A stretch of 57,309 nt of DNA, the filler included, from Squatina squatina (lineage: Eukaryota): NCBI GenBank assembly GCA_031763465.1. It is 3 parts of 3 records of this genome, joined end to end, with 100 filler letters (N's around TTAATTAATTAA, not from the genome) between each part and the next. Parts side by side here need not be neighbours in the genome. Positions count along the whole stretch, not along the records: positions 1 to 23,533 come from JARFOE010000016.1; 2 more parts are not named here. The stretch is one strand, 5' to 3'. Shown here piece by piece: positions 1,739 to 37,536 of the stretch. Position 1 is the first letter of the stretch. Each line of letters begins with the position of its first letter. The notes beneath the pieces are model-generated. The model was not told the origin of the DNA and did no database searches. It saw nothing but the letters and a program-made list of their open reading frames with translations. Made by a program: the position numbers and the translations under genes.

Positions 1739-2850
1739 NATTGGGGGCAAATTCTTGACCTGGTTAGGAAATATGCTGAGCGGCAGGAGATAGGCAGCGG
1801 GGATAATGGGTAGATACTCAAATTGGCAGGAGGTGACTAGTGGTGTCCCACAGGGATCTGTGTTGGGACCGCAACCAGTCACAGTATTTATTAACAACTT
1901 AGATATGGGGATAGAAAATCATATATCCAAGTTTGCCAATGACACAAAGATAGGTGGAATTGTAGGCAGTTTAGATGGAATCATAAAATTACAAAAGGTA
2001 TCGACAGATTCAGTGAATGGGCAAAACCTTGGCAAATGGATTTCAATGGAGGCAAATATGATGTCATCCACTTTGGATGTAAAAAGGATAGAAGAGGGTA
2101 CTTCCTAAATGGTGAAAGGCTAAACACAGTTGAGATCCAAAGAGACTTGGGGGTCCACGTACATAAATCATTAAAATGTCATGAACAGGTACAGAAAATT
2201 ATCAAAAAGGCTAATGGGGTGCTGGCCTTTATACCTAGAGGACTAGAATACAAGGGATAGCAGCTGTGCTGCAGCTATACAAAACCCTAGTTAGACCACA
2301 CCTAGAGTACTGTGAGCAGTTCTGGGCACCACACCTTACTTAAAAAGGATATATTGGCCTTTGAGGAAGTGCAGCGTAGGTTTACCAGAATGATACCCGG
2401 ACTTCAAGGGTTAAGTTACAAGGAGAGCTTACACAAATTAGGGTTGTATTCCCTGAATTTAGAAGGTTAAGGGGTGATGTGATCAAAGTTTTCAAGATAT
2501 TAAGAGGAACAGATAGGGTAGATAGAGAGAAACCATTTCCACTGGTGGGAGAGTCTAAACAAGGGGGCATGGTCTAAAAATTAGAGCCAGACCTTTCAAA
2601 AGTGAAATTAAGAAACACTTCTACACACACAGGGTAGAAGAAGTTTGGAACCCTCTTCTGCAAATGGCAATTGATGCTAGGTCAATTGTTAATTTTAAAT
2701 CCGAGATTGATAGCTTTTTGTTAACCAAAGGTATTAAGGAATATGGGCCAAAAGCAGGTATATGGAGTTAGGTCACAGATCAACCATGATCTCACTGAAT
2801 GGCGGAGCAGGCTGGAGGAGCTGATTGGCCTACTCCTGCTCCTATGTTCA
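1739..2850 (+). mobile_element. CR1-clade LINE (elasmobranch HER1-like), decayed 3' part of ORF2 plus 3' tail
   Basis: Frameshifted reverse transcriptase motifs GVPQGSVLGP, FINNLD, SKFANDTKIGG and RDLGVHVHKSLK. Ends in the tail GAATGGCGGAGCAGGCTGG...TGGCCTACTCCTGCTCCTATGTTC, which recurs at about 49930-50020 (-) and 52520-52585 (+). Confidence 0.9.
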
Positions 2851-3599
2851 CGGATATTAAGTAGATTATAATAACGACTCTAAATGTGGTCACTAATATC
2901 TTCAATTTAAAATAGTTTGAGACAACCTAAGTCATCTAAACATGTAATTAGAAAAGGAGTATTCTTCTGCTAACCCATCTCCCTCCGCCAAAACTGAAGT
3001 ATTTGCTCACTACATTATACAGTGATCATGTGCTCCTCGTAAGGTGCCTCGCTCACCAAGAACATGGTTCAGGGAATCAGCACAAGGGTTCTAGCTCTAG
3101 CTCTGACCCATGCTCCCATTGAGCAAGGCTTCCCATTGGGAGCACATGATTACTGAATCTATCCTTCTAACCCTTTCACATGCCACTCTGAAATCAAACT
3201 AAATTCTGAAAGCCTGTAATCAAATATCAAAATTCAGCATGGACTGGAACCAGGAAAGGCTTCTCTGAGCCCTCCTCGTTTTGTCACAATGGAAAGTATA
3301 ATGGAAAAGTACAAAGCTTACTGCTTTCCACATAAACTCAGAAAAAGGTCAGATATAGAAGGTGCAAACTGTACACAATTCTAAGAGTAATTGGGCTACC
3401 ACAAGCCAATCTAGATAAGCTAACATCAAGCACGCATTATAACTTTAATGATTTAAAAAGTAAAACAAGATAGTGCATTCAATAACTGATACTATACGTA
3501 AACCACCAAGACCGACAAATCTGGTTATAAATATTTTCTAACGCTCTACTTATAATCACTAACTGAGAATTTCGCACTACAGTTCACCTCAAACTCAGG

Positions 3600-3616
3600 C
3601 ATGCAGAATACATGCA
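3600..3616 (-). promoter_or_regulatory. Two RBFOX-type UGCAUG intronic splicing elements downstream of IST1 exon copy B
   Basis: Plus-strand CATGCA at 3600-3605 and 3611-3616 reads TGCATG on the IST1 strand, at intron positions +54 and +43. Confidence 0.55.
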
Positions 3617-3658
3617 AAAATACCAGCAGCTACACCATCTCCATTCACTGCTACTTAC

Positions 3659-3746
3659 TATTTTCAACTCTGTTACTTCAGATTGTAACCTTGGGGCAGC
3701 CCAGATTAGTGTGGAGACTGCCTCTGCCAGACCTGGGTCCAGTTCC
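3659..3746 (-). CDS. IST1: IST1 third coding exon, copy B (88 nt)
   Basis: ttactcag|G GAA CTG...AAA ATA|gtaagt. Encodes ELDPGLAEAVSTLIWAAPRLQSEVTELKI, in phase with the previous exon (ATG AA|G). Confidence 0.93.
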
Positions 3747-3808
3747 CTGAGTAAAAAGGGGCAGACGGAGACCATAAATCATCTATAATCTATATAAAAA
3801 AAACTTAC

Positions 3809-3896
3809 AATTCTGAGTTCAGCTACTTCAGTCTGTAGTCGTGGGGCAGCCCAAATCAGAGTGGAAATAGACTCACTGAGGCCTGTGTCAAGTTCC
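3809..3896 (-). CDS. IST1: IST1 third coding exon, duplicated copy A (88 nt), candidate mutually exclusive exon
   Basis: tacatttag|G GAA CTT...AGA ATT|gtaagt. Encodes ELDTGLSESISTLIWAAPRLQTEVAELRI. Same length and phase as copy B, with 22/29 residues identical. Confidence 0.85.
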
Positions 3897-5310
3897 CTAA
3901 ATGTACATGGAAGAAAAAAGGTAGANNNNNNNNNNNNNNNNNNNNNNNNNNNNNNNNNNNNNNNNNNNNNNNNNNNNNNNNNNNNNNNNNNNNNNNNNNN
4001 NNNNNNNNNNNNNNNNNNNNNNNNNNNNNNNNNNNNNNNNNNNNNNNNNNNNNNNNNNNNNNNNNNNNNNNNNNNNNNNNNNNNNNNNNNNNNNNNNNNN
4101 NNNNNNNNNNNNNNNNNNNNNNNNNNNNNNNNNNNNNNNNNNNNNNNNNNNNNNNNNNNNNNNNNNNNNNNNNNNNNNNNNNNNNNNNNNNNNNNNNNNN
4201 NNNNNNNNNNNNNNNNNNNNNNNNNNNNNNNNNNNNNNNNNNNNNNNNNNNNNNNNNNNNNNNNNNNNNNNNNNNNNNNNNNNNNNNNNNNNNNNNNNNN
4301 NNNNNNNNNNNNNNNNNNNNNNNNNNNNNNNNNNNNNNNNNNNNNNNNNNNNNNNNNNNNNNNNNNNNNNNNNNNNNNNNNNNNNNNNNNNNNNNNNNNN
4401 NNNNNNNNNNNNNNNNNNNNNNNNNNNNNNNNNNNNNNNNNNNNNNNNNNNNNNNNNNNNNNNNNNNNNNNNNNNNNNNNNNNNNNNNNNNNNNNNNNNN
4501 NNNNNNNNNNNNNNNNNNNNNNNNNNNNNNNNNNNNNNNNNNNNNNNNNNNNNNNNNNNNNNNNNNNNNNNNNNNNNNNNNNNNNNNNNNNNNNNNNNNN
4601 NNNNNNNNNNNNNNNNNNNNNNNNNNNNNNNNNNNNNNNNNNNNNNNNNNNNNNNNNNNNNNNNNNNNNNNNNNNNNNNNNNNNNNNNNNNNNNNNNNNN
4701 NNNNNNNNNNNNNNNNNNNNNNNNNNNNNNNNNNNNNNNNNNNNNNNNNNNNNNNNNNNNNNNNNNNNNNNNNNNNNNNNNNNNNNNNNNNNNNNNNNNN
4801 NNNNNNNNNNNNNNNNNNNNNNNNNNNNNNNNNNNNNNNNNNNNNNNNNNNNNNNNNNNNNNNNNNNNNNNNNNNTTTTGTATTTTCATTAAGGATTCTT
4901 ATGTAAAGAAAACTGGTAAATGGTCTGTACGAAGACAGGAGCACAGTAACTACTGTATTAATTGTGGATTGTGGAGAGGCAGTTAACAGTTGTATAGTGT
5001 TGGCAGAAGATGCAAATATTAGCAGCAACACTGCAGCATTGGCATTGTTTATTTTTCTACCTTGTTCCTCTCCAACAAAATAGTTCTGTTCCAAATTTAA
5101 AGTTAGTATCATGTGACCTTTCATCTTTCAGCTGAGTGAAAACACCGATTTGCCCAATAAAAAGATCTCTACACCAGTTGTGTAAACTTTAAGTTTTCTT
5201 ATTTATAGAAACACACCAATATTTTGCTGTTTAGTCATATATGACATTTAAGACCAGTGAAAAAATAACACATACAACCAATAACATAACTTTATATCAT
5301 GTTTACGTAC

Positions 5311-8659: not shown

Positions 8660-9010
8660 TCGGTTCAGAGGGCTGAGCGAATCTCCCCCCATCGAACGAC
8701 AGCCACTCAATCAGCATTGACAATCTTTTTAAGCGTATGGACTGAGTGAGTGACGGGATTAAAGTCAACGCTTCAGCCAGCGAGCGCTGCCGGAAGGAAG
8801 TCCTGAGCAGAGGCGAGAGACAGTGCGGAGTGGCAGGGCCGGAGTGAGGAACAGGGCGATGGGTGTGATGTGAGCCAGAGCGGCGGACTTCTGTCTGATT
8901 CGCTTCTCTTCGACACCGAATCGGCGTGGGATTGCAGGCTCTCTATCTCTCTCTCTCTCTACCCCCGCCCACTGTCCGCGGAATTGACGCAGTAAAAAGT
9001 TGTGTGCGGA
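8660..9010. promoter_or_regulatory. CpG-rich promoter/5' region of SLC10A3, possibly shared with the divergent IST1
   Basis: Locally high CpG density continuing into the CDS. Tandem ETS/GABP-like CCGGAAGGAAGT at 8790-8801 and TGACG half-sites near 8751 and 8985. Confidence 0.5.
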
Positions 9011-10390
9011 ATGTTTGATGTCTGCAAGTTGTTGTGGCCAGGCGGCATGCAGCAAGCGCTGCTTCTCCTGGGCTTGTTCGGCGGGGTTCGCTGCCTTCTC
9101 GACTCGAACAGCACCGCCCCGGGCCGGCACTACGTCAATATCGGCGATGGCACTTCCACCGAATTCGAGTTCCCCGAAAATACCAAAGGGATCATTGTGA
9201 TTTCCAGCCGGTACGGCAGCGCCCGGGAGAAGGACTTCACTCGGCTCTTGGTCCAGTCTCTGGATCCAGATGTTCTCGCAATCATCAACGTCAGCGACGC
9301 TGAAGCTATCGGATTTGAGAAAAGTTACATTGTCAGCATAAGATCCGGACTGGCCGGCACCGCGCCACTCTTAATCCGGCTGCTAGATGTCACCAGGATT
9401 GAGCCATTGACCGTGGAAGAACGAGAAGATTATATCATTAAAGTACTGCCCAGTGCTGATGATCTCGGTTACACTGGTCTGGCGCATTTCTCTCAAAACC
9501 CCGTCCTTTATTTCCTTTTGCCTTTGATTTTTATCAATAAATGTGCTTTCGGCTGTAAAGTGGAGATAGCAGTGCTCCGAGGTCTTCTGAAGCAGCCACA
9601 TCCTGTCATTCTAGGGGTGATTGGGCAGTTTCTGGTGATGCCCTTGTATGGATACACATTGTCCAAGATCTTCTCACTTCCCAAAGCCCTTTCCCTTGGG
9701 CTGATCATTTCTTGCTCTGCCCCAGGAGGAGGCGGAGGTTACCTTTACAGCCTACTTCTTGGAGGGGATGTGACCCTTGCCATCTCCATGACCTTGATTT
9801 CGACTGTGGTCGCAACTGGTATGATGCCACTTTCATCCACTATGTATAGCCACATTCTCAATGTTCATGAAACACTGCATGTGCCATTTACTAAGATTCT
9901 GGTAACATTGCTGTTTCTCGCTATTCCCATTTCAACCGGAATGTTAATCTAGGACAAATTGCCACGGGTCAGCACGTTCTTGCTTNNNNNNNNNNNNNNN
10001 NNNNNNNNNNNNNNNNNNNNNNNNNNNNNNNNNNNNNNNNNNNNNNNNNNNNNNNNNNNNNNNNNNNNNNNNNNNNNNNNNNNNNNNNNNNNNNNNNNNN
10101 NNNNNNNNNNGTTTGGACTGTTCATTGGATATCTCATGGCCTATTGTTTGAGATTATCTGTTCCTTTGTGCAAAACAGTCAGTATAGAAATTGGAGTCCA
10201 GAATAGCCTACTAGCCCTTGCTGTACTCCAGTTGTCCTTCCGCCGCATCGAAGCAGACTTTGCCTCACAGGCCCCTTTCATAATGGCTCTGAGTAGCACT
10301 TCAGAAATGCTGCTGCTTGTGATCGTTCATTTTATCTACAGAAACCTCAGGCCAAGCCCAGTCTCTGAAGACAATGAATTTAAGTCCTAA
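9011..10390 (+). CDS. SLC10A3: SLC10A3 (P3 protein, sodium/bile acid symporter family), single coding exon; in-frame TAG at 9950-9952 and N-gap at 9986-10110
   Basis: Motifs LLPLIFINKCAFGCKVE, CSAPGGGGGYLYSLLLGGDVTLAISMT, HETLHVP and TVSIEIGVQNSLLALAVLQLSFRR..ADFASQAPF..ALS.TSEML. Both ORF halves lie in one frame across the gap. First ATG at 9011, alternative ATG at 9047 before a signal-peptide-like stretch. Confidence 0.88.
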
Positions 10391-14287: not shown

Positions 14288-15472
14288 TTAAACTGAATTC
14301 TCGTCAGAACTCAACCAGGTAAACTTGTATTTTCTCAGCGGTAAGACAAGGTCCAGGGATAAAAGTTTCTGTTCACGTTCAGTTCCAACTAGTCGATATC
14401 CAAGCACGTTCATGGCTCCCCGACAGATGTCCTGTATTTTTAAAACCTTATCAAATGGCACCTCAGTCCTCCATGCCTGCGATATGCTTCTAGCATTTCT
14501 AGCTGTTATTGTGAATGCTGATCCGCTTCCTTCTCCGTGTGTGATGTTATGTATCCAAGACTTAAGCTTTGGAGTCAAACTTAAATCAGCAAATTTATAC
14601 ATTGCCGATATCTCATTAATTGGATCTCTTACCACATCTTCATACCGCACCATCATATAGCGTTGTTTCAGAAAGTCTGGAGCTCCTTTGGTTGCTATCT
14701 CATGAATCTGTATGTGACTTCTGCAAACTTCCTTCATGACTTCATAGTTTGATTCTTCAGCTTTATCTTTTTCTATGGGTTTACCGTTCAAAACAATACT
14801 GTTGTCTAGCAATAGTGCAAGAATTGATTTATCACGAGACTTAATGACAGCCCTAGGGTCTCTAACAAGGTGAATGATTTTGAGGTTCAGGGTGGGGTCA
14901 GTGAGGAGGGGAAACAGTGACATTAGCTCAAAGAATCTCACTTCTTTAAGCACAATGTGACTGTAGGTTTTACACGCTTCTTCCACTTTAAAAAATTTGG
15001 ACATGTTGCAATGTTTTTTACATATTGCAGCATTGCTGAGGTCTGTTCTTTCATTATAGTCACATGTGGGCGGTGAGCAGAGAGCTCTGCTGACCTCCCA
15101 TTGGAACAAGTCAGATACCCGTCTGTTTTCAGACATATAGGCATCAAATACTGACATGTCACACAAGAATGTAGACCGTATAAGGTCCCTAACAGCCATT
15201 TGCAAGACCTTTGCACTGTTTTGATGCATAGATACCCACACATGCCATGCAGGTTCCATTAAGTAAAAGACATCAGGATGTTGGCTGAATACTTGTCCCA
15301 CAAAGGAAGAACCTGATCTCCAGGATGAAAGAATTAGGATGTGAACTTTGTTATTCTGTTCATCAGATGGGAATAAATCAACCGTGGATCTGGAGTAGAT
15401 GAAGATTAAAGCCAATGTCTGAATAGTGACAAATGCAACAATGCTTGTAGTTACAAAGGTTAGCCTCACCAT
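14288..15472 (-). CDS. CHST6: Carbohydrate (N-acetylglucosamine 6-O) sulfotransferase, CHST6/CHST5-like, single coding exon, 394 aa
   Basis: Type II membrane anchor, 5'-PSB motif SSWRSGSSFVGQ, HPDVFYLMEPAWHVW, 3'-PB motif HLVRDPRAV..SR and VRYED. Acceptor ttttacag| at 15500-15501 places the true start at ATG 15472, not 15523. It lies downstream of TMEM231, as in tetrapods. Confidence 0.9.
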   Translation of the reverse strand: MVRLTFVTTSIVAFVTIQTLALIFIYSRSTVDLFPSDEQNNKVHILILSSWRSGSSFVGQVFSQHPDVFYLMEPAWHVWVSMHQNSAKVLQMAVRDLIRSTFLCDMSVFDAYMSENRRVSDLFQWEVSRALCSPPTCDYNERTDLSNAAICKKHCNMSKFFKVEEACKTYSHIVLKEVRFFELMSLFPLLTDPTLNLKIIHLVRDPRAVIKSRDKSILALLLDNSIVLNGKPIEKDKAEESNYEVMKEVCRSHIQIHEIATKGAPDFLKQRYMMVRYEDVVRDPINEISAMYKFADLSLTPKLKSWIHNITHGEGSGSAFTITARNARSISQAWRTEVPFDKVLKIQDICRGAMNVLGYRLVGTEREQKLLSLDLVLPLRKYKFTWLSSDENSV

Positions 15473-15596
15473 AGCGATGGCTCCTAATGTGGTACTGATC
15501 TGTAAAATAAAAGACACTGACATTACCGATTGCTTCAGAACTACACAGTCACCATGCTAACCAATGACTTGAAATTGACCAGACAGAAAAACAAAG

Positions 15597-20974: not shown

Positions 20975-21792
20975 CTATCCATTATAGCTCTCTTCATGAC
21001 TTTCTCACTATATGGACACTGTCCCACTACAATGGANNNNNNNNNNNNNNNNNNNNNNNNNNNNNNNNNNNNNNNNNNNNNNNNNNNNNNNNNNNNNNNN
21101 NNNNNNNNNNNNNNNNNNNNNNNNNNNNNNNNNNNNTACAATGGAAGAGAAATATACAGGCTCCTCAAAGAAATGCATCAGAAGTGCTCCTTGACAGCCA
21201 AGAATGTTCCAACGAGCAAGTTTATCACTACAGGACATCGATAATGTCCTGTCACCTCTTCCTGGCTTCACCCTCAATGATTCCACACAGTGGTAGTTAA
21301 TTCCAGGCTTATGGGGATCTTGAAAGCCACCTGGTACACATTTAGCTCCAGTTCGGTGTACGTCTGAAACTTTGATTTGCATCTCTCTGGTTTCATCTGC
21401 ATCCAGTGGAACTGCATTATGAGATACAGCAGTATCGTGGCTGCTAATATGCATCGTTTCTGTTGCATAAATGTGATTATCATCGATCTGGACATCAATG
21501 CTTCCTTTTGCAGTCTGACGATTGGAGTTCCTTTCAGGAATACTGCTACTTCCAGACACAAAGTCTCCACTTCCATCAACCCTTTTTACTCTTTTTTCAG
21601 GAACCTCTGTGGCACTTTTATCACATTTCCGTTTTTTGTCCTGTATGTGCTCTTCATTATTTAATAATTGCACATCTTCACTTTTATTATCTTGAACAGT
21701 GATATCTCTCTGCTCACCACCCTCCTCTGCTCTCATTTTTGGACAAGGTTTCTTCTCCTTTTCTGCCATTGGGATAATGGAAGCATCACCAC
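20975..21792 (-). CDS. ADAT1: ADAT1 (tRNA-specific adenosine deaminase 1) large central exon, interrupted by a false 100-N gap
   Basis: ttttgcag|GT GGT GAT GCT gives (C)GDASIIPM...[10 protein letters not shown]...[33 protein letters not shown]...[23 protein letters not shown](R)|gtaac. Collapsing the 9-nt overlap across the gap gives an open 709-nt exon. Confidence 0.92.
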
Positions 21793-22391
21793 CTGCAAAA
21801 GCAACAGATAACGGTTTCTATTCAAATCACTTAAAAGCTCCTAATTGTCATTACTCTTCACAATCTCACAGGAATAAATACTCAGAGCTCAGGAACCTCA
21901 GAACAAATCTGATAGAATTACTACAAAATAAAACACTGGCTAATGCATCTATAAATCACTAATTACTTACAGGTGACGTCTAGGATCACATTTGCAAATA
22001 GTTTCCCAGTTTTATTTGATGGGGTTAAAATTATTGGGCTAAATTATTGAATAAGCATACTGCGGACTGGAAAAATTGTTTTTCTCCAGTTTTCAAGTTC
22101 AAAGTGTAAAACAAATCCAATGTAACTTCCAGATGAAGTTGTGAAGGCAAAATTTCGTTTGAGAAACATGCCAGATGCTATGATAATACAGGTGAAATAT
22201 TCTAGGTTCATTCTGGATGTATAAGCTAGAATCGATCAAATAGCCTTCTTCAACTATCTTATGCAATATAATGCAGTCCCTACTGCTTCTANNNNNNNNN
22301 NNNNNNNNNNNNNNNNNNNNNNNNNNNNNNNNNNNNNNNNNNNNNNNNNNNNNNNNNNNNNNNNNNNNNNNNNNNNNNNNNNNNNNNNNNN

Positions 22392-29441: not shown

Positions 29442-30396
29442 AGGGTGACCAGATTTTAGGAAGGTCAAACCGGGACAAAAGTTACCTGCCGGCTGCGTCG
29501 AGAGACTGCACATGCACAGTCTGGGCTCCCCGAGACTTCTCCGAGCCTGCACATGCATAGTCCGGGCTCCCCAGAGACTTCTCCGAGCCTGCACATGCAT
29601 AGTCCGGGCTCCTCAGAGACTGCACAGACACAGTCCAGGCTCCTCAGAGACTGCGCATGCACAGTCCGGGCTCCCTGAGACTGCACATGCACAGTCCGGG
29701 CTCCTCAGAGACTGCACATGCACAGTCCGGGATCCCTGAGACTTCTCCGAGACTGCACATGCACAGTCCGGGCTCCTCAGAGACTGCACATGCACAGTCC
29801 GGTCACCCTGAGACAGCGCATGCAGAGTCCGGGCTCCCCGACTCTTCTCCGAGACTGCGCATGCACAGTCCGGGCTCCTCAGAGACTGCACATGCACAGT
29901 CCGGGATACCTGAGATTTCTCCGAGACTGTACATGCACACTGCGGGCTCCTCGGAGACTGCACATGCACAGTCCAGTCTCCTTGAGACAGCACATGCACA
30001 GTCCGGGCTCCTCGGAGAATGTGCATGCACAGTCCGGACTCCTCGGAGACTGCACATGCGCAGTCCGGGCTCCCCGAGTCTTCTCTGAGATTGCACATGC
30101 ACAGTCCGGATCCACAGAGACTGCACATGCGCAGTCTGGGCTCCTCAGAGAATGCGCATGCACATATAAACAAAAAATGCTGGAAAAACTCTAATATTGC
30201 ACTTTGTGTTTGGAGTTGTAATTATAACACATGCCATTTATTGTGAAAATTAGTATTGATTTGTATTTAGTACAACTGTGTGTTTGAGTTTGTGACAAGG
30301 TTTGAAATAACTTATAATACACTTGCCCATATTTAAATTATGTAAAGTTTTGGTATAAAGTAAATTAAAATATAAAAAATGCAATCTGGTCAGTAT
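29442..30396 (+). mobile_element. hAT (Tip100-like) non-autonomous element containing an internal minisatellite
   Basis: Left end AGGGTGACCAGAT...AAACCGGGACA. Possible right end ATCTGGTCA at 30384-30392. The termini match the MITEs at 53792 and 56864. Confidence 0.55.
29502..30163 (+). repeat. Minisatellite of about 30-42-nt units, consensus GAGACTGCACATGCACAGTCCGGGCTCCTCA, with an optional GAGACTTCTCC-type insert
   Basis: About 20 directly visible head-to-tail units. Confidence 0.95.
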
Positions 30397-35869: not shown

Positions 35870-37536
35870 AGGTCAGGTGGTCAGATGGAAAGACTCCAGG
35901 CTTTGAGAAAGGCCAGATACATGGAGGAAGAGCTCCAGGCTGTGAGATAGGCCAGATGCATGAAGGAAAGGCTCCAGCTGTGAAATTGGCCAGATACAAG
36001 AAGGAAAAGCTCCAGGCAGTGAGATAGGCCAGGTACCAGAAGGAAAGGCTTCAGGCTGAGATAGGCCAGATACCAGAAGGCAAGGCTCCAGGCTGTGAGA
36101 TAGGCTAGATGCCAGAAGGAAATGGTTCAGGCTGTGAGATAAGCCAAACACCAGAGAAAAGGCTCCAGGCTGCAAGATAGGCCAGAAACAGGAAGGAAAA
36201 GCTCCAGGCTGTGAGATTGTCCAGATACCAGGAGGAAAGGCTCCAGGCAGTGAGATCGGAGAAGGAAAGGCTCCTGGCTGTTATATTAGCTCGGCCAGAT
36301 ACCAGAAGGCAAGGCTCCAGGCTGTGAGATAAGCCAGATACCCAGAGTCAAGGCTTCAGTCTGTGAGATCGACCAGATACCAGAAGGAAAGGTTCCAGGC
36401 TGTGAGATAGGCCAGAGTCTGGAATGAAAGCTTCCAGGCTGTGAGATAGGCCAGACACCAGAAGGAAAAGCTCTGGGCCGTGAGATAGGCCAGATACCAG
36501 AAGGAAAGACTCCAGGCTGTGAGATAGGCTGGGCAAAATACCAGACGGATCGGCTCCACGCTGTGAGATAGACCAGACACGAGAACAAAAGTCTCCAGCC
36601 TGTCAGGTAGCCCAGATACCTGAAGGAAAGGCTCCAGGCTATAAAATAGCCCAGATACCAGAAGGAAACGTTCCCGGCTGTGAGATAGGCCAGACACCAG
36701 AAGAAAAGGCTCCAGGCTTTGAAACTGGCCAGCTACCAGATGGAAAGGCTCGAGGCTGTGAGATCGGCCAGGTCCCAGAAGGAAAGGCTCCAGGGTGTGA
36801 GATAGGAGAGGCCAGATACCAGAAAGAAAGGCTCAAGGCTTTGAGATAGGCCAGATAGGAAAAGGAAACTCTCCGGGCTGTGAGATAGGCCATGTACCAG
36901 AAGTAAAAGCTCCAGGCATTGAAATAGGCCAGATACATGAAGGAAAGCCTCCAGGCTGTGATATACATAAGAAAACAGAATGAAAGGCTCCAGGTTGTGA
37001 GCCGGGTCTCATACCAGAAGGAAAAGCTCAGAATGTGACAAGCCAGGCAACAGAAGGACAGGCTCCAGGCTGTGAGTTAGGCCGGTACCAGAACGAAAGG
37101 CTCCAGGCACCAGAAGGAAATGCTCCAGGCTGTGAGAAAGGCCAGATATATGAAGTAAGGGCTCCAGGCTGTGAGATAGGCCAGATGCACGAAGGAAAGG
37201 CTCCAGCTGTGAGATTTGCCAGATACCAGAAGGAAAGGCTCCAGACAGTGAGATAGGCCAGATACCAGAAGGAAAGGCTCCATGCTGTGATATTGGCTTG
37301 GCCAGACACCAGGAGAAAGGCTCCAGGCTATGAAATAGGCCAGACACCAGAAGGAAAGGCTCCCGGTTATGAGATAGGCCAGATACCAGGAGGAAAGGCT
37401 CTAGGCTTTGAGATAGGTGAGATGCAAGAAGGAAAGGCTCCAGGCTGTGATATTGGCTTGGCCAGATACCAGAAGGCAAGGCTCCAGGCTGTGAGATAGG
37501 CTAGATGCCAGAAGGAAATGGTTCAGGCTGTGAGAT
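35870..37536 (+). repeat. Minisatellite, 39-nt consensus GAAGGAAAGGCTCCAGGCTGTGAGATAGGCCAGATACCA, about 40 units, runs into a gap
   Basis: Directly visible tandem units with point variants and occasional 5-nt insertions. Confidence 0.96.

Follow-up and report, generated by a model that had tools for sequence, protein, structure and literature searches.

A tandem pair of apparently mutually exclusive exons in IST1 of Squatina squatina and other cartilaginous fishes

The IST1 locus and its neighbours

The stretch of DNA analyzed here, referred to as the window, comprises 57,309 nucleotides (filler included) of the Squatina squatina assembly GCA_031763465.1. Close to its start it carries, on the minus strand, the part of IST1 that runs from the start codon to the exon beginning with residue 120 (Table 1). 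The constitutive exon upstream of the pair described below matches human IST1 31-89 (E 2e-31), and the flanking IST1 peptide (118 residues) is identical to that of Pristiophorus and Heptranchias and one residue away from that of other sharks. Between the two constitutive exons lie two adjacent homologous exons, here called A and B, which encode the same protein region in the same phase, each peptide matching human IST1 residues 91-119 (E ~2e-10). Both exons have AG acceptors, with pyrimidine tracts of 18/22 in front of A and 19/22 in front of B, as well as GTAAGT donors, and with either copy the reading frame stays open from the ATG to the end of the last IST1 exon in the window. The original prediction, which had been made from the sequence alone, had given the coordinates, the lengths (88, 88 and 62 nt, with a repeat spacing of 150 nt), the splice sites, the phase and the peptides, and all of them were found to be accurate.

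Table 1. Features of the IST1 exon pair and its surroundings (positions are those of the window)
Feature	Position	Strand	Remarks
IST1 first coding exon, portion from ATG	5894-5807	minus	88 nt, codons 1-29; 0 differences from retrieved shark IST1
Constitutive exon upstream of the pair	5491-5311	minus	181 nt, residues 30-90; its last two bases open the K90 codon
Assembly gap, 950 N	3926-4875		spans most of the intron ahead of exon A, hiding its branch point and any regulatory elements there
Exon A (residues 91-119)	3896-3809	minus	88 nt; apparently derived, near-invariant, usual copy
Intron between exons A and B	3808-3747	minus	62 nt; in-frame stop when retained
Exon B (residues 91-119)	3746-3659	minus	88 nt; apparently ancestral-like, more variable, alternative copy
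Two TGCATG (RBFOX-type) motifs	3600-3616	minus	at +43 and +54 relative to exon B, which they are predicted to switch on
Constitutive exon downstream of the pair	443-360	minus	84 nt, starts at residue 120

The two copies differ at 26 of 88 nucleotides and at 7 of 29 residues, and synonymous differences are present in 12 of the 22 codons that encode identical residues, so that the residue and synonymous codon counts of the original prediction were reproduced on recount. By the Nei-Gojobori method pS was 0.72 and pN 0.146, giving a dN/dS of ~0.06 with dS near saturation. The likeness between A and B ends at the splice sites (a 96-nt repeat, 73%). No third copy of the exon was found in the sequenced window, in which the assembly gap begins 29 nt upstream of A. 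In all 26 chondrichthyan proteins scanned, both isoforms included, the Pfam Ist1 domain scored 204.7-213.4 bits against a cut-off of 33.6. The last codon of exon A (window position 3811) encodes Ile119, which is private to this sequence, as Val was found in two of the assembled runs described below (X19 and X21) and in the majority of annotated sharks, and Ile in none of the 17 annotated A versions; located three letters ahead of the donor, it reflects either a change private to this sequence or an erroneous base.

Several other features were seen in the window. A gene for an SLC10A3-like bile acid transporter (8996-10387, plus strand; Pfam NTCP5_P3_N and SBF) is arranged head to head with IST1, whose start codon is ~3 kb away. 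Further on, a single-frame sulfotransferase gene was found at 14291-15556 (minus), as was an adenosine deaminase exon at 21011-21817 (minus) whose 219 residues fall over only 94 profile positions, a long insert. Tandem arrays are located at 29502-30164 (units of ~31 nt, with many TGCATG copies) and at 35882-37536 (units of ~39 nt, with open frames of 13-residue repeats). The intron below exon B holds broken frames at 1742-3000, which resemble a LINE retroelement fragment; two frames had no Pfam match.

Use of the two exons and how exclusivity may be maintained

Assembled sequencing runs were searched for contigs that pass through the pair. Among 24 runs of 7 studies, none recorded as RNA, 8 were compared with 3400-3925; these are assembled contigs from related organisms, not reads, their type is guessed or unknown, they have no tissue labels, and contigs drop rare forms. 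Runs X1 and X19, from two organisms and two studies, each gave two 142-nt contigs, one through A and one through B. The A and B forms have their ends in common, which map with 1 mismatch over 24 nt to the end of the upstream exon (5311) and with 2 mismatches over 28 nt to the beginning of the downstream exon. A length of 142 nt equals 24 + 88 + 30, which is exactly the 31-mer assembly bubble expected for two alternative exons sharing their first six bases, and the flanks of 24 and 30 nt on the B contigs are below the 31-nt bridge threshold. Contig depths, which are not expression levels, were 85.6 for A and 46.6 for B in X1, and 31.3 and 12.8 in X19. Run X11 had a single 928-nt contig, through A only, while X3, X7 and X15 had no contig at 3400-3925 and X9 an intronic piece only, at depth 2.

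An A-to-B joint was not seen in the 8 runs, of which 3 had spliced contigs, with the reservation that contigs may miss low-level co-inclusion, and no protein with both A and B motifs was present among the 349 scanned of 456 gathered. In 16 of the 17 species in which both versions are annotated, the RefSeq X1/X2 isoforms are equal in length and differ solely within residues 91-119. Each of the two exons is thus spliced to the same upstream and downstream exons, as seen in the contigs of X1 and X19 and in the equal-length RefSeq pairs of 16 species, and A and B almost certainly form a mutually exclusive pair.

It was also considered that the pair might be an assembly artefact, a misjoined paralogue, two allelic haplotypes or a dead pseudo-exon. 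The short distance between A and the 950-N gap and the fragmented assembly would speak for such a reading. However, run X21, from another organism, contains one 1508-nt contig that spans 3417-3925 and has A and B in the same order, separated by a 63-nt intron, and because A, intron and B are held there in one piece the arrangement is not a misassembly. The isoforms of equal length come from one chromosome in 16 species, and synonymous sites between the copies are close to saturation, which also argues against an artefact, an explanation that we consider negligible. Of the 30 substitutions listed for the X21 contig, exon A has 1, exon B has 4, the small intron has 5, and the remaining 20 lie within 242 nt of downstream intron. 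The original prediction of mutually exclusive use and two isoforms was therefore borne out by contigs passing through A or B and by the annotated pairs in 17 species; of the outcomes that it had named as fatal, a copy without junctions, a segment misjoined from a paralogue and routine co-inclusion, none was encountered, as junction contigs exist for both copies, X21 spans the region and no A-B join was seen in contigs.

Two routes by which exclusivity is classically enforced had been proposed for this pair, a very short spacing between donor and branch point and a frameshift, and the sequence has the features of both. In the 62-nt intron the candidate branch adenines are predicted at 14, 23, 30 and 34 nt from the donor, all of them closer than the limit of ~50 nt for joint binding of U1 and U2 that is given in the accessible parts of PMC5740500 and PMC7969005. 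Premature stops are predicted at codon 142 when both exons are included, at codon 112 when neither is, and at codon 129 when the intron is retained, although the 150 nt thereby added are in frame. For double inclusion and for intron retention the next junctions are located >100 nt downstream of the stop and within the window; for double skipping the later junction needed for decay would lie outside the window, judging from relatives of 364 residues. The wrong combinations are thus predicted to carry premature stops ahead of later junctions. From these features it is likely that the short intron, too short to splice, would sterically block A-B joining, and that nonsense-mediated decay would serve as a backup, catching transcripts that escape with A+B, with both exons skipped or with the intron retained.

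Such features are known from other exon pairs. In the portion of PMC5740500 seen, human mutually exclusive exon clusters include 57 (9%) with a donor-to-branch distance of <50 nt and 377 (60%) with an exon length not divisible by three, and the IST1 pair has both properties. The exons 4a/4b of OGDH, as described in the accessible part of PMC7969005, also resemble it, their branch points being 25-41 nt from the upstream donor and the intron size being restricted across vertebrates. In OGDH, however, the branch points are distant ones, far from the acceptor in a longer intron, while in IST1 the whole intron is 62-63 nt long, so that even an ordinarily placed branch point is too close; those of OGDH were mapped (same source), those of the IST1 pair are predictions. 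As all three wrong combinations carry early stops, it could be argued that the pair mainly sets the dose of IST1, with co-inclusion or skipping leading to decay as in poison-type regulation. Yet both single-copy forms are in frame, were found as contigs and are intact in 17 species, and a poison exon has no need to keep the reading frame, which makes regulation of dose a very improbable main role. A candidate docking-site/selector RNA pairing was rejected as well. The intronic element at 3391-3405, which is complementary to the shared core of both exons, did stand out in a first shuffle test (1/30 as good), but 19 of 200 shuffles were as good on repeat, and the element folds on itself.

RBFOX proteins are abundant in muscle, heart and neurons. 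In the 3,550 sequenced nt of flanking introns TGCATG occurs only twice, both times in the first 60 nt after B (+43 and +54), and UGCAUG motifs in the near downstream intron are a mark of RBFOX-activated exons. Two TGCATG were obtained in 95 of 20000 shuffles of the 100 nt after B, a test chosen after the motifs were noticed. Both motifs are unchanged in contigs of two related organisms, but this conservation is weak, since with introns diverging by 8% the 12 letters would stay unchanged with p ~0.36 and the 32-nt block with p ~0.06, and the two organisms share most of their differences. It has been reported, in the text available from PMC11874969, that GCAUG downstream of an exon usually enhances inclusion and that many such motifs are unbound, and in that from PMC9741552 that tissue specificity is shown by three quarters of the human isoforms from tandem substitutions, particularly in nervous and cardiac tissue. 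On the motifs, B is probably the muscle or nerve form; that RBFOX proteins would be what switches it on in those tissues is a proposition we hold to be evenly balanced.

Distribution and history of the two copies

The spread of the two versions was followed in 456 proteins, taken from the best 120 of 1256 and the best 120 of 392 matches and from 30 cluster look-ups (up to 15 members from each). Both versions are annotated in at least 17 of the 23 named cartilaginous fish species retrieved, the chimaera included: Callorhinchus, Pristiophorus, Heterodontus, Stegostoma, two Chiloscyllium, Scyliorhinus torazame, Mustelus and three skates, and, among further rays, Pristis, Narcine, Hypanus, Hemitrygon and two Mobula. 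In the other six (Heptranchias, Hemiscyllium, Rhincodon, Carcharodon, Cetorhinus and Scyliorhinus canicula) only A was among the listed proteins, which does not amount to absence of B in an incomplete list, and no species had B only. All nine retrieved Logan-only chondrichthyan proteins were A, and a search for short B-type fragments yielded no candidate.

Two versions were not found in any of 76 groups of bony vertebrates with at least two proteins, as judged from annotation and not from genomic DNA. Megalops, Conger and Polyodon were split here by chromosome, since in each of them the differing versions belong to paralogous genes, and a few of the groups represent genera. The mammalian proteins retrieved had one version of the segment per species, human included, in contrast to the two in cartilaginous fishes, and the single mammalian exon has Ser99. 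The two-version trait thus appears to be chondrichthyan-wide, and of the earlier claim that this lineage makes two isoforms the two isoforms held, while their restriction to one lineage did not. The pair is present in automatic annotation, without comment, as the RefSeq X1/X2 isoforms. In further isoform pairs one member is 15 residues longer than the other, which points to another alternative exon farther downstream and outside the window. Among the public records, a 72-residue IST1 fragment assigned to Escherichia coli carries the mammalian sequence and likely reflects contamination.

At position 99 Ser was found in all 17 A versions and Ala in all 17 B versions, and at position 119 Ile was found in all 17 B and in none of the 17 annotated A. 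A rough tree was built from 29 columns of 35 segments (13 of the 17 species and 9 bony outgroups, with no jawless-fish or invertebrate sequences). In it the A-like copy of the chimaera (X1) groups with all A with a support of 89/90, and a separate duplication in the chimaera gave a p-AU of 0.04; the A and B copies of the chimaera differ at only 4 residues. These results point to a single duplication in the chondrichthyan stem, before chimaeras split from sharks and rays, which we consider likely on this small alignment. The split between chimaeras and the shark and ray lineage took place ~400 million years ago. The original prediction of an old duplication agrees with a dS near saturation and with the presence of both versions in 17 of 23 chondrichthyan species.

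An even older event, predating the split of the jawed vertebrates, with copy A later lost by bony vertebrates, would fit the free tree, in which B copies intermix with bony-vertebrate exons and A stands apart, and would be in keeping with the human events, of which >90% have bony-fish orthologues, so that such duplications are usually old (PMC9741552, in the part accessible). Nonetheless, a tree with all chondrichthyan copies as one clade was not rejected (p-AU 0.195), slow change in B would explain its mixing with bony exons, and two versions were absent from all 76 bony groups, so this deeper origin seems unlikely.

After the duplication the copies took different courses. Exon A gained T94, S97, I100 and R118 and then nearly froze. 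Among 16 elasmobranchs its mean distance is 0.067, with 5 variable columns, compared to 0.184 and 12 variable columns in B, which is 2.7 times more variable; in the 60 residues on either side of the segment the mean distance is 0.013, with 0 variable columns. B residues unseen in 44 distinct bony-vertebrate versions include P108L, L110F, Q111P, T102S and E113D. The variation of B is not decay, because of the two copies B matches the Pfam Ist1 profile with the higher score in 11 of 13 species pairs. Both copies are therefore under purifying selection (dN/dS ~0.06) and intact in 17 of 23 species, as had been predicted, but the constraint is not equal, B being the less constrained of the two. We infer that A is the derived, frozen default and B the ancestral-like, looser alternative and regulated form. 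This would be an unusual course after a duplication, as it is the changed copy that became the frozen default and the ancestral-like one that became the looser alternative.

The exchanged segment and its place among known exon pairs

The last base of the K90 codon is the first of the alternative exon, with the lysine preserved in both copies. Human IST1 (PDB 3FRR, 6TZ4/5, 13GH and 13GJ) is the orthologue with the same residue numbering, and its K90 is retained in both shark forms. Residues 91-119 should correspond to the loop after K90, helix 3 and the start of helix 4; from two AlphaFold models, with pLDDT of 41 and 47, only the rough loop position was taken. A PIP2 pocket of IST1 and a PIP2-binding K90 were recently described in the accessible part of PMC13342873. 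The contacts named in the portions seen of bioRxiv 10.1101/798181 and 10.1101/386532 are I54, R55, E57, D77 and R82 for the IST1 strand and, for CHMP1B, helix 1, and helices 1, 2 and 5 with Y165; none of the CHMP1B contacts named there falls in residues 91-119. The original prediction had connected the swapped helices to copolymerization with CHMP1B, a link that finds no support for this segment, as I54, R55, E57, D77, R82 and Y165 all lie outside it. Since the named CHMP1B and IST1-strand contacts are outside the segment, the swap is more likely to affect membrane binding, packing or stability than the recognition of CHMP1B, at least with respect to the contacts in these sources. Both proteins would keep the closed ESCRT-III fold, differing mildly in the loop and short helices located after the PIP2-binding K90, and the swap would tune membrane binding or filament shape and not the recognition of CHMP1B.

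Whether the two proteins differ measurably in function is a question on which we lean, by a little, towards the negative. It is conceivable, though we would not favour it, that the pair is real and exclusive but that its products are equivalent, B being kept by the tissues that splice it (regulatory entrenchment). The greater variability of B among the elasmobranchs, the mostly conservative nature of the A/B changes, the small distance within the chimaera pair, the Ser99 in the single exon of mammals and the lack of B among the listed proteins of six of the 23 species are all consistent with equivalence. On the other hand, positions 99 and 119 separate A from B in all 17 annotated species, A acquired T94, I100 and R118 early and barely changed thereafter, and human tandem exon substitutions are mostly conservative yet tissue-specific at the protein level, according to the part of PMC9741552 that was available.

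Comparison with human genes places the IST1 pair in the known class of tandem-duplicated mutually exclusive exons. The human tandem exon duplication-derived substitutions (236 events; PMC8373072 and PMC9741552, both as far as accessible) also involve internal homologous exons of equal length and phase that are used singly, with conservative changes in a folded domain and great age. The IST1 pair differs in that it appears to be confined to cartilaginous fishes, while bony fish share >90% of the human events (PMC9741552, accessible part). IST1 and the CHMP genes had no match in the supplement of PMC8373072 or in 10 searched supplementary files of PMC5740500, control genes being found in both, nor in the text and one supplement of PMC9741552. 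A description of the IST1 exon pair was not found in the literature searched, from which subscription papers were mostly absent. The earlier impression that such a pair had not been described for IST1 thus agrees with the searched literature and two human catalogues, and the pair is apparently undescribed within its class.

Taken as a whole, the reading that we hold with high confidence is that of chondrichthyan tandem exons A and B, exclusive, likely through a short intron and nonsense-mediated decay, with B probably driven by RBFOX in muscle or nerve. It would be an old, clade-wide mutually exclusive pair in the core of a member of the ESCRT-III family, for which two human catalogues contain no such event, and it offers a compact model in which two mechanisms would secure exclusivity and an RBFOX switch is predicted. 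The surprise is limited, as the class of mechanism is textbook and the isoforms had been annotated automatically. A much bolder version, which we regard as unlikely, is that cartilaginous fishes would be the only vertebrates with two IST1 subunits from one gene, and that an RBFOX-switched membrane-facing loop and short helices by K90 in muscle and nerve would have given them tissue-specific filaments differing in lipid preference or curvature since before the chimaera split.

The pair also represents a natural variant pair of IST1 residues 91-119, beside the PIP2 pocket (PMC13342873, accessible part), in a segment whose role has been little tested. Two replacements within the B versions were observed at the joint between its two short helices. 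Gln111 is changed to Pro in all nine batoids, and Pro108 has become Leu in two skates and, by what appears to be a separate change, in Heterodontus.
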